Origin: Thermoplasmatales archaeon SW_10_69_26
Lineage (GTDB): Archaea; Thermoplasmatota; SW-10-69-26
NCBI GenBank assembly: GCA_003009755.1
Contig: PXUB01000043.1
Span: 1-64,000 of the forward strand
Length of the DNA stretch: 64,000 nucleotides
Direction: 5' to 3'
The notes beneath the pieces were generated by a model, which ran no database searches, was not told where the DNA came from, and worked only from the letters and a program-made list of their open reading frames with translations. Positions 2,539-34,740 of this stretch are shown here, in pieces. Every line of letters starts with the position of its first letter. The first letter of the stretch is position 1. Made by a program: the position numbers and the translations under genes.

Positions 2539-4485
2539 TCAGGCGTGCTCGAGCCGTGGGACGGCGTTGGCCTGTGCCCGTCGGTTCTCGACCTCGTCGG
2601 CGAGCATCTCGGCGAAATCGGCGATGTCGACATCGTCCAGGGTGCGTTCCTCGTGGTCGCGCAGGCTGACCGTGCCGGCCTCGGCCTCGTCGTCGCCCAC
2701 GATCATCATGTAGGGCACGTTGTCGTCGTGGCCGCGGCGGATCTTGTTGCCGATCGTCTCCGAGCGGTCGGCCACCTCGACCCGGAACTCGCCCAGCTCG
2801 TCGGCGACCTCGTGGGCGTAGTCGACGTGGTCGTCGCTGATCGGCAGCACGCGGGCCTGCTCGGGGGCCAGCCAGGGCGGGAAGTTGCCGCCGAAGTGCT
2901 CGATGACGACGGCCATGAACCGCTCGAAGCTGCCCAGGAAGGCGCGGTGGATCATGATCGGGCGGTGGAACTCGTCGTCCTCGCCGCGATAGGTGAGATC
3001 CAGTCGCTCGGGCAGGTTGTAGTCGAGCTGGATCGTGGGGCCATCCCACTCGCGGCCGAGGGCGTCGACCATCTTCATGTCGATCTTGGGGCCGTAGAAG
3101 GCCGCGTCCTCGGGCTCGAGCTCCCAGTCGAGGTCGCTGTCCTCGAGCACCTGCCGCAGCGTGGCCTCGCTGTCCTCCCAGATCTCGTCGCTGCCGATGG
3201 ACTTGTCCGGGTTCTTCGTGGCCAGCGCGACGCGCGCCTCCATGTCGAACACGTCGAGGATGTGGATCGCGGTCTCCAGCAGCTGGGTGACCTCGTCCTC
3301 GATCTGGTCGGGCCGGCAGAAGACGTGCCCGTCGTCCTGCGTGAAGCCCCACACGCGCAACAGGCCGGACAGCTCGCCGTGCTGTTCCTTGCGGTAGACG
3401 GTCCCGTGCTCGCAGTAGCGGATCGGCAGGTCGCGGTAGCTGCGGGTCTCGCGGTCGTAGATGAGGGAGTGCGCCGGGCAGTTCATCGGCTTGAGCGCGA
3501 ACTCGCGCTCGCCCTGCTCCCAGTGGAACATGTCGTCGATGTAGTTCTCGTAGTGCCCGGTCTTCTGCCACAGCTCGGTCCGGTAGAGGTGGGGGCTGCG
3601 GACGTACTCGTGGCCGATCTCGGCGTTGATCTCCTCGGCGAAGCTCTCCAGCTCCCGGTAGATCGCGGTGCCCTCGGGCCCGAACAGCGGAAGGCCGGGG
3701 CCGACGAGCTCCTCGGTCTGGAAGATCCCCATCTCTTGGCCGATCTTGCGGTGGTCGCGCTCCTTGGCCTTGCGGCGCTTCTCGAGGAAGTCCTCCAGCT
3801 CGTCCTCGGTCGGGAACGCCGTCCCGTACACGCGGGTCAGGGTTTCCCGGTCCTCGTCACCGCGCCAGTAGGCGCTGGAGACCTGCAGGAGCTTGAAGGC
3901 GCCGATCTCGCCGGTCGAGGCGACGTGGGGTCCCTTGCACAGATCCTCGAACTCGGCCTGCTGGTAGAAGCTGACCTCCTCCTCGCCGGCCGCCTCGTTC
4001 TCGAGGATCTCCCGCTTGAACGGGTTGTCCTCGTAGTACTCCTCGGCCTCCGTGCGCTTCATGGAGAAGCGCTCGACCGGATGGTCGGCGTCGACGATGT
4101 CCGCCATCTCCTCCTCGATCCGGTCCAGGTCCTCGCGGTCGAGGTCGGCCTCGGCGATGTCGTAGTAGAAGCCCTCGTCGGTCCAGGGCCCGATCGTCAG
4201 CTTGGCCTCGGGGAAGTGCCGGAGAAGAGCTTGCGCGAAAGCGTGCGCGCACGTGTGGCGTAGCGCATCGAGGTACTCGTCGTCGCTTTCGGTGACGATC
4301 CGCAGCCGGCTCTCGTCCTGGACAGGCTCCTCCTTGGCGACGAGTTCACCGTCGAGCTCGCCGGCCACCGTGTCCCGGCCCAGGCCCTCGCCGATCTCGT
4401 AGGCGACGTCCTCGACCGTGGAACCCTCGGGGACCTCGAGCGTCGAATCGTCGGGTAGGCGGATCGTGATTGCCAAGGCGATCAC
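2539..4485 (-). CDS. thrS: Threonine--tRNA ligase (bacterial-type, with TGS and editing domains)
   Basis: [63 protein letters not shown]; start could be TTG at 4476. Confidence 0.97.
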
Positions 4486-30534: not shown

Positions 30535-30816
30535 ATGGGGGAGCAGGTTTCTTTCGCCTCGACGGGGGTCCTCGCCCTCGTCGCCGCGGTCGTTCTCGTC
30601 CCGATCGCCATCGTGCAGGTCCTCGGAGCTGGGCTCACGGAAGGCCTGCTCGTCGCGCTCGTCGTGGTCCCCATCCTCCTGGCGGCCCTCTGGGTGTACG
30701 TCGACGCTCGTCGGCGAGCCGACGACCACGCCTGGCTGTGGACGATTGTCACGCTGGCGTTGCCGCTCGTCGGCCTGATCGTCTACCTGGGCGTCCGGGC
30801 GATCGACACCCGCTAG
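30535..30816 (+). CDS. Small membrane protein
   Basis: Hydrophobic; LWVYVDARRR...WLW...LPLVGLIVYL pattern. Confidence 0.7.
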   Translation: MGEQVSFASTGVLALVAAVVLVPIAIVQVLGAGLTEGLLVALVVVPILLAALWVYVDARRRADDHAWLWTIVTLALPLVGLIVYLGVRAIDTR

Positions 30817-30852
30817 ACTATCGGTTTTGTTTTGCTTACGCCCCCGCGCCGG

Positions 30853-31072
30853 TCTCGGGAGACCGGGTACGGTCTCCCGAGAGGACGAGCTCGGAGGGCT
30901 CGTGCGAGGGAGAGTGGCAAGGTCGCGGAGCCCGAGGACGGGAACCCTCGAGGGTTGTCGACGGACACTGCCCGAAACAGCGATCCGGGCGAATCCAGCG
31001 ATCGGTCACCGGCCGATCGGTGGAGAATACGGATCTCCGATTCGTGTGAACCGTCGTCTCGGCTTCGCGTTT
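30853..31072 (+). ncRNA. Candidate structured RNA, about 200 nt, family unknown
   Basis: 13-bp perfect hairpin with GGTA loop at 30853-30882, several further hairpins, 30877-30887 can pair with 31052-31062, T-run at the 3' end. Confidence 0.4.
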
Positions 31073-31183
31073 TCACCGCCTGAGGCCGAGCGAGAGCTTA
31101 CCCCAAGCACAGCCGGCAGTCTAGTCCTCGGCCGGCTCGGCCACGCCAAGGGGCTCAAGTAGGGGCGGACGGCTGGCTACCTC

Positions 31184-31828
31184 GTGTCCGCCCGGAAGCC
31201 TCCCTCCTCGCTCGGCGACCTCGCCATCTCGATCGAGCAGCGCGAAGACGGACTCCGCATCCTCGAGGACGAGGTCTCGATCGCCGTCGACTTCGACGGT
31301 GTCCTCTTCGAGCAATCTCGCCACGTGCGCGATCTCTTCCAGGAGGTCCACGGGATCGATCCCGGCCCGGTCGACGAGTGGCCCTGCGAGCTCACCGAGC
31401 ACCCGCCGATCAAGGACGAGGGCCTGACCAAGGAGGACACCTGGGAGGTCTTCCACGCCGTCCACAACGATATCGAGCGGCACCGCGACGACCCGCTCGA
31501 CCCCGACACGACGACGGTGCTGGCCGAGCTCCGAGCTGCGGGTCACGAGGTCGAGATCGTCACCGCTCGCGATCCAGTCAGCCGCGAGCCGACCCGCTTC
31601 TTCCTCGAACGCAACGAGATCCCCCACGACCGACTCGTCATGGGGGACAACGCGAAGACCGGCTGGGACGTGCTCGTCGACGACCTCCCCCCGCACGTCG
31701 AGCGCGTCGCCGCCGACGGCTCGCTGGGCCTCCTGCACGACCAACCGTACAACCGGGCCTACGAGACCGACGGCAACCCTCGCCGGGTCGCCTCCTTCGA
31801 GGAGCTTGGGGCCCTGTTCGGCCACTGA
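31184..31828 (+). CDS. HAD-superfamily 5'(3')-nucleotidase-like protein
   Basis: IAVDFDGV, IVTAR, K...DVLVDDLP, DQPYN. Confidence 0.8.
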   Translation: MSARKPPSSLGDLAISIEQREDGLRILEDEVSIAVDFDGVLFEQSRHVRDLFQEVHGIDPGPVDEWPCELTEHPPIKDEGLTKEDTWEVFHAVHNDIERHRDDPLDPDTTTVLAELRAAGHEVEIVTARDPVSREPTRFFLERNEIPHDRLVMGDNAKTGWDVLVDDLPPHVERVAADGSLGLLHDQPYNRAYETDGNPRRVASFEELGALFGH

Positions 31829-31962
31829 TCCTCCCGGCTGTGGCCACCGCTTCCCGGCCCGCTCCACCGGAACCGCACGACGTAAGTGCCTACCGGGTCG
31901 GGGCTCGCCACGGGTAAGGGCACCGACGGAAGTGACTTATGCGAGTAGGCTCCATATATGGT

Positions 31963-32692
31963 TGTCCGCGTCGTGTAGGACGCGTGGACGGTCCGACCTC
32001 TCGCGTTGGTTGGTCCCCGCGGCGGGTTCGCCCGCCGGAGAGCGCGCTCGCGAGGGTGCGCGATGGGGCCAGGCGGGATCGGCTCACAGCCGATACCGTC
32101 GGACGGTGGAGCCCCGGTTCGCCGGGCGTGCCGCTGGCCACCCGGACACATCCGTGTCCGCGGGCTACCCGTCAGGGTCCGGGCGTCGCAGGCGCCCTCA
32201 AGCCCGCACGCGAAGAACGGCGTGTCGATCGAGGCGTGCGCTCCCGCGCGCGTCGAGAGAGCACGTGCGGAGGGCCGTGAAGCAAGGCCCCGGTTCGCCG
32301 GGGCAAGGAGGTGTGCCGAAACGGCGAACCTCTCGAGCTGACCGGCCGGTCTTCGGCGTGCGAACCGGGAAGGGCTCGCGCCCGTTCCGGGTGCCCGCCT
32401 CTTGGGTGGGCGAGGCGTGGTGAGCTTCGCGCTGGCCACGCAACAAGGGCCGCAAGGCCCGCGGGCCGACCGGAGATCGGTCGTTCCGTGGCACGCACCC
32501 GCATCTGCCTGACACCGAGCGATCGGTGCTCCTGCGGGTCGACCGTGCAGCCGCCCGGGTCTGTCCCGCTTCGCGGGAAGGGGCCCGAAGGCAGCGGTCC
32601 CGTGGCCGCCTTCGATGGTCGCGGAGACGTTCGGAGAGGAGTCCGAGCGGGTCAAGCCCGCTCCCGCCACGCGTCCGCGCGGTGCGGCTTTT
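31963..32692 (+). ncRNA. Candidate large structured non-coding RNA, about 730 nt, family unknown
   Basis: 5' end 31966-31991 pairs with 3' end 32664-32687; many hairpins with UUCG/GNRA loops; upstream TATA-like ACTTATG; CTTTTCC after the stem; no credible ORF. Confidence 0.75.
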
Positions 32693-33029
32693 CCTCCCCA
32701 CCTCTGCTCCCTCAGGGACTCCCGCCGCGAGGGCCTTCGGCTCGCCCGGTGGGAGGCCCTCGCTCGGTCCGTCCCTTCGGTCGCAGAGGTTCGTCGGCCT
32801 CGGCGAAGGGGGATGGGGGGTGTCGGTCTGCATCGAGGTACCGCAAGGGCGGGGTTCTGTAGCTGTCTCAGCCAGACGGAGTCTATTTGATCTTCAAGGC
32901 CTCTACGGCTATATCCGGCCCCTTCATCGCTTCAGCCGTCACGATCGCTTCGAGCGACAAAAGTCCGTGGTGGAGGGCCTTGTTGTCGCTAGTTCCTCTC
33001 CCAACTGAGACACGTTTAGAACCTCGCCC

Positions 33030-33361
33030 CAGGGGTACCTCTGCTTCGAGCTCCTTGCCAGCGGCGAACCTGACGCCGGGCCCTTCGGCCGGCGCCTGAA
33101 GGGGCGCTTGCCTCGGTCCGCCCCCTCGGTCGTCGATGTTCGTCGCAGCGCTATCTCGCCTGACGGGTTCCGGCGTGGCGTCGCTCTCGACGATCGAGGA
33201 CCCTTAGCCGTAGTGGGTCCCGGCCGGCAGGGTCACCTGGACCGAGTTCGCGGTGTCTTGACGGTTGCTCGTCTCCGATGCGACCTGATGCCCGAAACGT
33301 ATTTGTATCACATATCGACCGCTGTCTCGTAGACGATGATTGCTGCGGGGAGACCCGCGGT
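33030..33361 (+). repeat. Dispersed intergenic repeat family A, copy 2
   Basis: Identical 31-nt and 43-nt blocks shared with 7620-7965, plus a shared GCTCCTTGCCAGC. Confidence 0.85.
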
Positions 33362-33444
33362 GATCTTCTTTCGCCGACCGTCATCAACCAGCTCAGATCA
33401 TCGCTCGCGCGAGCGTTAGCCTGATCTTCCTGCGCCCCGAGGCC

Positions 33445-34740
33445 CTAGCGGCCGGCGACGCGCGGACCCTCGGCTTGCGCGTCGTCGAGCACCTCGGCGA
33501 TCTCGGCCTCGGCGTGGGCCGGCGTTCCCCCAGTCACGCGAGCCTCGACGCGGGTCCCGATGGGGAGCTGTTCGGGCAACACCACCGGATCGTAGGCGCC
33601 GGTCCGGGCCTGCGAGGTCCCCTCGACCACGTGCTCGACGACGGTGGCCTCCACCGTCTGACCCGCCAGGCGGCTGCGGTGGGCCCTCTGCAGGCGGTCG
33701 CGGACCTCGCTCAGTTCGCGCGATCGATCCTTCACGAGCCCGCCGTCCAGCTGGTCGAGCTCGGCGGCCGGCGTGCCGGGCCGCGGGCTGAACCTCGTGA
33801 CGTTCACGTGACCGGGCCAGGTCCCTTCGAGCAGATCCACGGTGGCTCGATGGTCGGCCTCGGTCTCGGTCGGGTACCCCACGATCACGTCGGTCGCGAT
33901 CGTGACCTCGCCGAGCACCTCGCGCGCCCGCTCGCACACGTGCTCGAAGTCCTCGACCGAGTGCTCGCGGTCCATCGCGTCCAGCACGTCGTCCGAGCCG
34001 GACTGCACCGGGACGTGCAGGAAGTTGTACACGTTGGGGTGGTCCATCGCCTCGAGCAGGTCGTCGAGGAACGGGATGCCGAGGAACGGATTCAGCATGC
34101 CGATCCGGATGCGGGCCCGGTCGGGCACCTCGCGCACGGCCTCGACGAGATCGGCCAGGTTGTGGCCGCGGTCCTGCCCGTAGGCGCCGGTGTCCATGCT
34201 CGTCAGCCGGATCTCGGTGGCGCCCCGGTCGACGGCGTCCTGGACCGCGTCCTGGATCGACTCGATCGGGTAGGAGCGCAGGCCGGGCCGGGCGAGCTTC
34301 GTGATGCAGAACGTGCAGTTGCCCAGACATCCGTCGTTGATGACGATCGTGGCGATGCCGTCCTCCAGCGTGCGCGGCAGGCCCGCCTTGTCGACGGGCG
34401 CGGGCGTGAACCGCCCCTCCTCGAGCAGCGGAACGAGCTGGTCGAGGTTCGAGGGCGGCAGCACGAGCGCGTGCGGGGCGATCTCGTGCACCTTGCCGGG
34501 TTGGGCGCTGGCCATGCAGCCGGACACGACGAGCGTGTCCACCTGCTCGTCCAAGGCTTGGATGCGTTCGACCATGCGGCGCTGGGTCTTGTCCACGACG
34601 GTGCAGGTGACGAGCACGGCTGCGTCGGCCCGAGCCGGCTCCTCGACGAGCTCGTGACCGGCCCGACGGGCCAGAGCCTCCATCGTGGAGCCCTCGGCCT
34701 GCGTCGTCGCGCAGCCGTACACCTCGACGTGGACGCGCAC
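33445..34740 (-). CDS. tRNA methylthiotransferase (MtaB/CDKAL1-like radical SAM protein with TRAM domain)
   Basis: VEVYGC, TCTV, VSGCM, GCLGNCTFC, DTGAYGQD, LHVPVQSGS, TDVIVGYPTETE, FSPRPGTPAA. Confidence 0.92.
   Translation of the reverse strand: MRVHVEVYGCATTQAEGSTMEALARRAGHELVEEPARADAAVLVTCTVVDKTQRRMVERIQALDEQVDTLVVSGCMASAQPGKVHEIAPHALVLPPSNLDQLVPLLEEGRFTPAPVDKAGLPRTLEDGIATIVINDGCLGNCTFCITKLARPGLRSYPIESIQDAVQDAVDRGATEIRLTSMDTGAYGQDRGHNLADLVEAVREVPDRARIRIGMLNPFLGIPFLDDLLEAMDHPNVYNFLHVPVQSGSDDVLDAMDREHSVEDFEHVCERAREVLGEVTIATDVIVGYPTETEADHRATVDLLEGTWPGHVNVTRFSPRPGTPAAELDQLDGGLVKDRSRELSEVRDRLQRAHRSRLAGQTVEATVVEHVVEGTSQARTGAYDPVVLPEQLPIGTRVEARVTGGTPAHAEAEIAEVLDDAQAEGPRVAGR

Follow-up and report, generated by a model that had tools for sequence, protein, structure and literature searches.

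A large structured non-coding RNA, probably of a new class, in one family of halophilic Thermoplasmata

The genome of Thermoplasmatales archaeon SW_10_69_26 appears to contain an independent gene for a stable, abundant and highly structured non-coding RNA (ncRNA) of an undescribed class, found in one family of halophilic Thermoplasmata; we estimate the probability of this reading at roughly 80%. The gene lies in a 64,000-nt stretch of contig PXUB01000043.1 (positions 1 to 64,000, forward strand, GenBank assembly GCA_003009755.1), which we call the window and to which all coordinates refer. It occupies ~31965-32692 on the + strand (31966-32687 between the ends of its closing stem), is non-coding and single-copy, and has a predicted length of ~650-730 nt. 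The corresponding stretch of contig (31963-32692) has a GC content of 73% and is located between two Pfam-supported genes. The source genome (G000) comprises 2.8 Mb in 49 contigs and is 95% complete. A first-pass annotation, made from the sequence of the window alone, had proposed at this place an independently transcribed ncRNA, possibly of a new archaeal class, and this proposal is now supported by a promoter-like motif of its own and by the lack of any matching Rfam family.

The predicted fold is considerably more stable than expected by chance, in agreement with the high degree of structure initially claimed. The + strand has a minimum free energy (MFE) of -447 kcal/mol, compared with -399.35 +/- 9.16 kcal/mol in dinucleotide-preserving shuffles (z -5.20; 0/20 as good), whereas the - strand reaches -403.5 kcal/mol with a weaker z of -4.19. 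Since GC-rich DNA generally folds well, control windows were folded too: none of 84 windows of 730 nt, taken from both strands of the same 64 kb, attained -447 kcal/mol, the lowest value being -431.3 kcal/mol. A regression on GC content placed the + strand 59.7 kcal/mol below expectation (residual standard deviation 16.2) and the - strand ~16 kcal/mol below. The closing stem that had been described, with 31966-31991 pairing to 32664-32687 and including G-U pairs, is present, as are six hairpins with UUCG (32027, 32118 and 32294), GCGA (32050 and 32519) and GCAA (32452) loops. The G-U pairs in the outer stem and conserved helices, the weaker z of the - strand and the orientation of a promoter-like motif and a T tract (see below) support the initial call of the + strand as the RNA strand.

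Homologues occur in related metagenome-assembled genomes, one of the checks that the first-pass annotation had suggested. BLAST among 60 relatives gave clear matches in two genomes (G001 and G004) and weak ones in two others (G003 and G005), all from the same family, four of whose five other species genomes contain the RNA (5/6 including G000). The full-length homologues measure 611, 623, 831 and 819 nt, the compact 611-nt form being that of G001; the sequence extracted from the window for comparison measures 736 nt. Pairwise identity among the five RNAs is 49-82%, and they represent three lineages (G000; G001 and G004; G005 and G003). Along their length, invariant sequence blocks alternate with segments that differ in both length and sequence. 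The homologue folds are also more stable than their shuffles (z -13.5 for G001 and -6.8 for G005).

These five sequences retain a common core structure through compensatory changes. We counted pairs in seven well-aligned helices (41 pairs) of a MAFFT alignment, A5, leaving out several peripheral hairpins, the helices P1a and P1c and the terminal hairpin, which MAFFT misaligned by at least one column in G005 and G003. Core pairs were formed in 99.0% of cells, against 87.4 +/- 1.7% in shuffles (0/500 reached the observed value); double-sided changes affected 14 of the 41 pairs, a count reached by 3/500 shuffles, and the covariation score was 0.422 against 0.173. When partners were slid by 1-3 columns, only 25-56% of cells remained paired, with 0-4 double changes. 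All ten pairs of P1b form in all five sequences, with three double changes; P4, P5 and P5b, each 97-100% paired, show two, four and four, respectively, and P3 shows one (G-C to A-U). P5b is a clear example: three sequences have CACCGA/UCGGUG, and the remaining two have CCGUCA/UGACGG or CUGUCA/UGACGG. The five counted pairs of P2 (31997-32001 with 32635-32639) form in every sequence and never vary, and a sixth (32002 with 32634) forms in three, being G-G in G001 and G004. P1a, which was not counted, is maintained in G000, G001 and G004 by G-C, G-U and A-U alternatives that are workable only on the + strand. In G004, both sides of a pair in a Domain I hairpin (32182-32196) have changed, from G-C to A-U. 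P1b, P4, P5/P5b and the terminal hairpin reappear in the MFE folds computed independently for the homologues. Constraining the G000 fold to the conserved helices costs only 1.5 kcal/mol (-445.5 versus -447.0 kcal/mol unconstrained) and gives 19 hairpins.

Long open reading frames (ORFs) overlap the RNA region on both strands. The isoelectric points (pI) of all seven are 11.5-12.0, against 4.05-4.80 for all five Pfam-supported neighbours, which bears out the remark that no ORF here has the acidic composition of the host, and the three overlapping ORFs scanned contained no Pfam families. In four pairwise comparisons among the RNAs, 11/15, 10/12, 13/14 and 17/22 indel runs were not multiples of three, and mismatches were spread evenly over the three codon positions. 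Protein-coding capacity is thus excluded by the frame-breaking indels, the lack of codon periodicity and pI values unlike those of real genes.

The RNA region is represented in environmental RNA libraries. Parts of the stretch are found in 20 public runs, of which all those with large shares carry the label halite metagenome and eight, from two studies, are RNA libraries (soil metagenome runs, with shares of 0.06-0.10, were not used). We examined contigs from three RNA runs (X4, X5 and X7; two studies) and one DNA run (X1) over 30800-34000. A single 654-nt contig from X7 covers 31984-32634, an assembled contig from X5 covers 31997-32595, and contigs from X4 cover 32013-32233, 32204-32264 (two alleles), 32235-32362, 32389-32633 and 32498-32528 (strand not given for any of them). 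None of the three RNA runs yielded contigs over the flanking genes, and one 157-nt X7 contig touches 30946-30976 within a dispersed repeat upstream. The DNA run had depth in all 30 bins of the same interval. Metatranscriptome coverage had been proposed as a check; coverage over the RNA and not over its flanks would be expected from a stable, abundant RNA, as far as contigs can tell, the RNA assemblies being small (7-10 million letters).

The RNA contigs start at 31984, 31997 and 32013 and stop at 32595, 32633 and 32634, falling short of the predicted ends by 20-50 nt on the 5' side and ~55-95 nt on the 3' side, and they leave the 3' strands of P2 and P1 uncovered. The stops at 32633 and 32634 come from two different studies and coincide with the start of the P2 3' strand; they may reflect either falling coverage at a depth of 11-15 or a hint of 3' processing. 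The RNA runs contained no contigs over 32635-32692 or 31964-31983 and no circular junction or loose end, which is evidence neither way. As a separate observation, X4 contains a 33-nt contig with two differing letters over the invariant P5 block (32498-32528) at a depth of 300, compared with 8-13 in neighbouring contigs; the community may also express a related form of the RNA at higher abundance.

Conserved signals flank the gene. The TATA-like box that had been noted about 25 nt upstream is indeed found, preceded by a purine-rich stretch resembling a B recognition element (BRE), at 31928-31942 (+), ~24 nt upstream of the closing stem; both features are conserved 23-25 nt upstream of the P1a 5' strand at all five loci. 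Archaeal promoters have a BRE followed by a TATA box upstream of an independent transcription unit, and the motif would fit this layout. At the other end, the reported pyrimidine tract corresponds to TTTT at 32689-32692 (+), a likely terminator that follows P1; pyrimidine-rich tracts come after the P1a 3' strand in the homologues too, with T runs of 3-5 at four of the five loci. The conserved BRE/TATA-like motif, the downstream T tract and neighbours that differ between genera together point to an independent transcription unit. A second TATA-like run, CCATATATGG, occurs at 31952-31961, just before the closing stem, in G000 but not at the other four loci; it lies ~27 nt upstream of 31984, the start of the longest RNA contig.

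We explored the distribution of the RNA at several scales. A covariance model of its 3' third (R1) scored the five family loci at 139.8-181.6 bits and detected no other locus among 21 class genomes (15 outside the family) or 151 sampled phylum genomes (145 further genomes). An exact degenerate 29-nt pattern, built from the most conserved block (32490-32538), matched 26 loci in one-genome-per-species GTDB contigs, four of them the known homologue loci and 22 non-archaeal, and 28 loci in metagenome contigs, none a real homologue. R1 was used to rescore 44 of these 50 non-archaeal loci (28/28 metagenome and 16/22 genome), leaving out the near-duplicate Pseudomonas/Stutzerimonas loci L035, L036, L040, L041, L043 and L044; three reached 24.5-26.8 bits and were dismissed as chance, as the pattern itself accounted for their score. 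In 401 phylum genomes, a 5' pattern searched with up to one mismatch gave five exact matches, all in the family, and nine one-mismatch matches, which were rejected: they have no 3' domain, and a reversed-pattern control gave about as many (count 22). In viral contigs, the 3' pattern had no match and the 5' pattern five chance matches, all lacking the 3' domain. With filters off, sequences beside the orthologue of the downstream methylthiotransferase gene in G002, G007, G010 and G018 scored at best 13.3 bits and contained no homologue. From these sequence searches, the RNA seems so far confined to one family of halophilic Thermoplasmata.

The first-pass annotation reported no hallmarks of known RNAs and suggested a comparison with Rfam. 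We scanned the window with the 4227 covariance models of Rfam 15 at gathering thresholds, and 31400-33400 at E<=10. At gathering score there were no matches in the 64-kb window, and the relaxed scan returned four far-sub-threshold ones, the best at 17.7 bits against a threshold of 42. The four homologue loci gave five weak matches, with no family shared between loci. The matches to PyrR209, psaA, TLS-PK1 and the like were discarded as far below threshold and not shared among loci. The RNase P and signal recognition particle (SRP) RNAs, whose presence elsewhere had also been recommended for verification, are encoded on other contigs of the genome (RF00373 at G000:C30:9467-9796, 139.8 bits; RF01857 at G000:C25:144925-145239, 190.2 bits), and neither matched the RNA region even at E<=10; these two RNAs also mark the organism as an archaeon. 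A group II intron, circularly permuted or not, would show a Domain V/VI hairpin to the Rfam models and often encode a reverse transcriptase, but no intron model matched at that cutoff, and the ORFs of the region and its surroundings contained no reverse transcriptase family. Likewise, the RNA is single-copy and has no Rfam match to the transposon guide RNAs (HEARO/omega RNA of IscB and TnpB). Full-text literature searches yielded no description of such an RNA. The pipeline described in a study of small RNAs of a halite community retained only transcripts of 50-500 nt (PMC7002113), so that this RNA is unlikely to be in its catalogue, and a term search of the main text of a 2017 survey of 224 candidate RNAs gave no mention of Thermoplasma or halophiles (PMC5737381). 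It is best regarded as a new, lineage-restricted class of RNA.

With more than 500 nt, covariation in multiple helices and no coding capacity, the RNA has these three properties of the large, ornate structured ncRNAs. It had been placed in the size class of the bacterial OLE, ROOL and GOLLD RNAs; the homologues, at 611-831 nt, multi-domain and non-coding, do fall there, but the RNA belongs to none of the three. OLE resembles it in design, with a similar size, stems around multi-helix junctions and invariant blocks between covarying helices; it is also free-standing, apparently abundant and found in extremophiles, and its biochemical function is not established. However, OLE (~600 nt; RF01071) occurs across Bacillota extremophiles and anaerobes as the core of a ribonucleoprotein (RNP) with OapA/B/C and usually adjoins oapA, whereas the present RNA has an archaeal host, is found in one family instead of phylum-wide, lacks a conserved adjoining partner gene, does not match the OLE model and has no oapA-type gene among its neighbours, the only genes searched. 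ROOL (~580 nt; RF03087) and GOLLD (~800 nt; RF01998) share the size class, the ornate multi-domain fold and the non-coding nature, but they are bacterial and often reside in prophages, while the RNA studied here matches neither model, has no tRNA gene beside it and no homologue in viral contigs, and is not in a prophage. ROOL and GOLLD have been described as forming RNA-only cages (PMC12286853). Archaeal RNase P RNA resembles the present RNA in being stable, in having a closing stem that joins its ends, a conserved core with variable arms and its own promoter; it is about half as long and is encoded separately in this genome.

The anatomy of the RNA was modelled from alignment A5 of the five sequences together with independently computed MFE folds. 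The core model comprises P1 (in three parts), P2 (CCUCU/AGAGG), P3, a joiner, P4, the P5 domain, two arms and the terminal hairpin; a GC-rich P1 would join both ends of the molecule, and P2 would close a central multi-helix junction carrying P3, P4, P5, the arms and the terminal hairpin. All elements are on the + strand. The P1 5' strand (31966-31991, with P1a at 31966-31973, P1b at 31978-31987 and P1c at 31989-31991) pairs in the MFE fold with the 3' strand at 32664-32687, which the pair counts also support. G005 (L078 ~4395-4456) and G003 (L079) have an extra hairpin of ~30 nt between P1a and P1b, so that P1 becomes a three-way junction in these two genomes. A near-invariant joiner, UCCGA (31992-31996), leads into the 5' strands of P2 (31997-32002) and P3 (32003-32006), both backed by the alignment and pair counts; the columns of 31992-32006 are mostly invariant in A5 (column 31 differs in G001).

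P3 encloses Domain I (32007-32207), which in the constrained fold contains the UUCG (32027 and 32118) and GCGA (32050) hairpins among others and a three-way junction at 32160-32207, and whose arms differ in length among homologues. The P3 3' strand (32208-32211; alignment and pair counts) is followed by a conserved purine-rich joiner, GAAGAACG (32212-32219), which might resemble a known ribosomal RNA (rRNA) kink-turn; a kink-turn reading was abandoned, as the tandem G-A positions vary (GA, GA, AA, GG, GG). The P4 5' strand (32220-32226), likewise seen in the alignment and pair counts, opens Domain II (32227-32489), the most variable domain by its folds and its large insertions and deletions, much shorter in G001 and G004 and longer in G005 and G003. 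The most conserved block by pair counts (32490-32538) combines the P4 3' strand (32490-32496) with the P5 hairpin domain, made up of the covarying helices P5 (32498-32503/32533-32538) and P5b (32513-32518/32523-32528), the invariant CUGCCUG internal loop (32505-32511) and the invariant GCGA loop (32519-32522) that caps P5b. By eye, stretches complementary to CUGCCUG occur in some sequences, but at non-homologous positions, and a loop-loop or pseudoknot partner was dropped. Domain IV (32540-32626) consists of two hairpin arms present in all homologues, with varying sequence and length. Then come an invariant segment, GGAGAGGAG, from 32633, including the P2 3' strand (32634-32639), and the terminal hairpin (32645-32663), present in all five RNAs but one column off in G005 and G003 in the MAFFT alignment. 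Overall, invariant nucleotides are concentrated near the central junction, in its joiners and helices, and in the P5 loop; the arms at the periphery differ in length.

The gene is flanked upstream by a HAD/5'-nucleotidase-like hydrolase gene (31184-31828, +) and, ~750 nt downstream, by a convergent radical-SAM methylthiotransferase gene (UPF0004, Radical_SAM and TRAM; 33445-34740, -), both Pfam-supported; families around the gene also include a VWA protein and a phosphatase. This gene order, with the hydrolase gene co-oriented with the RNA, is common to G000, G001 and G004. The methylthiotransferase adjoins the RNA only in these three genomes and is on other contigs in G003 and G005, and it was accordingly rejected as a conserved partner gene. 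In G005 the upstream neighbour is a divergent gene encoding an orotidine monophosphate (OMP)-decarboxylase/RraA-like fusion, and downstream of the RNA, G003 and G005 have unrelated flanks. The neighbouring ORFs scanned contained no transposase, reverse transcriptase, integrase, Cas or IscB/TnpB-type nuclease families, and ARAGORN detected no tRNA genes in the 64-kb window. In G002, the methylthiotransferase orthologue (G002:C28:16808-17797) is matched only over two separate pieces (residues 1-139 and 263-420), which may reflect an interrupted gene or masked sequence.

Both sides of this neighbourhood contain repeats. Upstream of the hydrolase gene, the intergenic stretch 30817-31183 is a dispersed repeat with 56 BLAST matches in G000, organized in two modules (~30822-30991 and 31051-31124) with 74-96% identity; DNA run depth rises to ~1060 at 31014-31120, against ~12 nearby, and the repeat matches no Rfam family at E<=1 and lacks clear terminal inverted repeats. 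The position of many of its matches at the ends of contigs makes it probable that this repeat interrupts the assembly. On the other side, the 750 nt that separate the RNA from the methylthiotransferase gene (32700-33445) are missing in G001 and G004 and consist largely of repeats (19 matches in total), including one at 32839-33037 with three other copies at 93-97% identity and one at 33292-33361 with several copies at 76-90%; DNA depth there is ~65 against ~12.

Several other explanations were weighed. The transcript could be a precursor whose P1 is a processing stem cut off as in the maturation of rRNA- or tRNA-like molecules, leaving a linear or circularised RNA of ~31997-32634. Contigs from two studies do end flush at 32633 and 32634, where the P2 3' strand starts, and another begins where its 5' strand does, at 31997. 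However, no contig links the 3' part to the 5' part, the RNA runs show no loose ends there, no bulge-helix-bulge motif is visible by eye in P1, and P2, the terminal hairpin and P1 are at least as conserved as the interior; at such low depth (~11-15), contig ends 20-60 nt inside the transcript are what coverage falloff would produce. We consider this scheme improbable, if the strongest of the competing ones. At the opposite end, the least credible proposal is that the sequence is a cis-acting untranslated region (UTR), the 3' UTR of the hydrolase gene or a leader, or simply GC-rich intergenic DNA folding by chance. The shared orientation of the hydrolase gene and the RNA in three genomes is compatible with a UTR, and GC-rich sequence does generally fold stably. 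Yet RNA contigs stop short of the hydrolase gene, the RNA has its own conserved promoter-like motif, and the upstream gene of G005 is a different and divergent one, while a chance fold would account neither for the compensatory changes (14/41 pairs, 99% paired) nor for a stability beyond that of 84 control windows.

The changing neighbourhood, which differs between genera and downstream even between the two g4 genomes (G003 and G005), and the dispersed repeats on both sides in G000 (56 and 19 genome matches) could also suggest that the RNA belongs to a mobile or defence element, for instance as a guide or retroelement RNA, and is only loosely tied to the chromosome. We regard this as very unlikely in view of its single copy in G000, the housekeeping-gene synteny common to G000, G001 and G004, the viral contigs with zero 3'-pattern matches and five 5'-pattern matches devoid of the 3' domain, the zero tRNA genes in the 64 kb, and the mobility and Cas families missing from the scanned neighbours. 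Slightly less plausible still is a highly divergent representative of a known class (an RNase P-like paralogue, a group II intron remnant or a relative of OLE, ROOL or GOLLD). A closing stem combined with a multi-domain junction is indeed typical of RNase P RNA and group II introns, and high GC content and lineage divergence can mask homology, but no Rfam match resembling these families appeared at E<=10 in G000 or at the four homologue loci, bona fide RNase P and SRP RNAs exist elsewhere in the genome, and there is no domain-V-like match, intron-encoded protein or flanking exon.

A number of points weigh against an independent gene for an abundant RNA of a new, family-restricted class. The double changes represent few independent events, coming from five sequences of three lineages, so that the shuffle control overstates their significance, and the helices were picked partly from those same five sequences. 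The evidence from the runs consists of assembled contigs, which carry neither strand, true ends nor expression level, and, since they do not cover the P2 and P1 3' strands, the gene may be longer than the mature RNA. G002, which belongs to the same family and is 89% complete, has no copy, its best R1 match (20.3 bits) being in a stretch without any signature motif, and the searches outside the phylum used exact-match patterns only. No neighbour conserved at all five loci was found that would point to a partner or pathway, and what we say about function is inferred from architecture.

If the RNA is such an independent ncRNA, its architecture suggests how it could work. By tying both ends together, P1 would shield the molecule from exonucleases and give it a long life, and the central junction with the P5 loop would form a folded core acting in trans. 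Such a functional site is suggested by the clustering of invariant nucleotides there while the peripheral arms vary, the same pattern of conserved core and variable arms known from RNase P RNA, group I and II introns and OLE. Few large RNAs have complex conserved folds, and nearly all those understood are ribozymes, RNP cores or RNA-only cages. An OLE-like docking platform for an RNP would be the foremost candidate function, although it falls somewhat short of even odds; a ribozyme active site seems about half as plausible, and an RNA-only multimer would be a long shot.

We know of no large RNA with a complex fold, beyond rRNA, RNase P and SRP RNAs, established in archaea. On a more speculative note, the RNA might be the first ornate giant RNA, of the kind known from bacteria, to be found in an archaeon: a new RNA machine, ribozyme or self-assembling, that evolved in a salt-saturated cytoplasm whose multi-molar cations promote complex RNA folds. 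If this were true, the invariant junction and the CUGCCUG/GCGA hairpin would be its active or assembly site. The narrow distribution of the RNA limits its general importance. Nevertheless, with a defined gene, a supported core, five natural variants and evidence of expression, it is ready for structural and biochemical study, and it could serve as a test case for RNA folding and function at very high salt.

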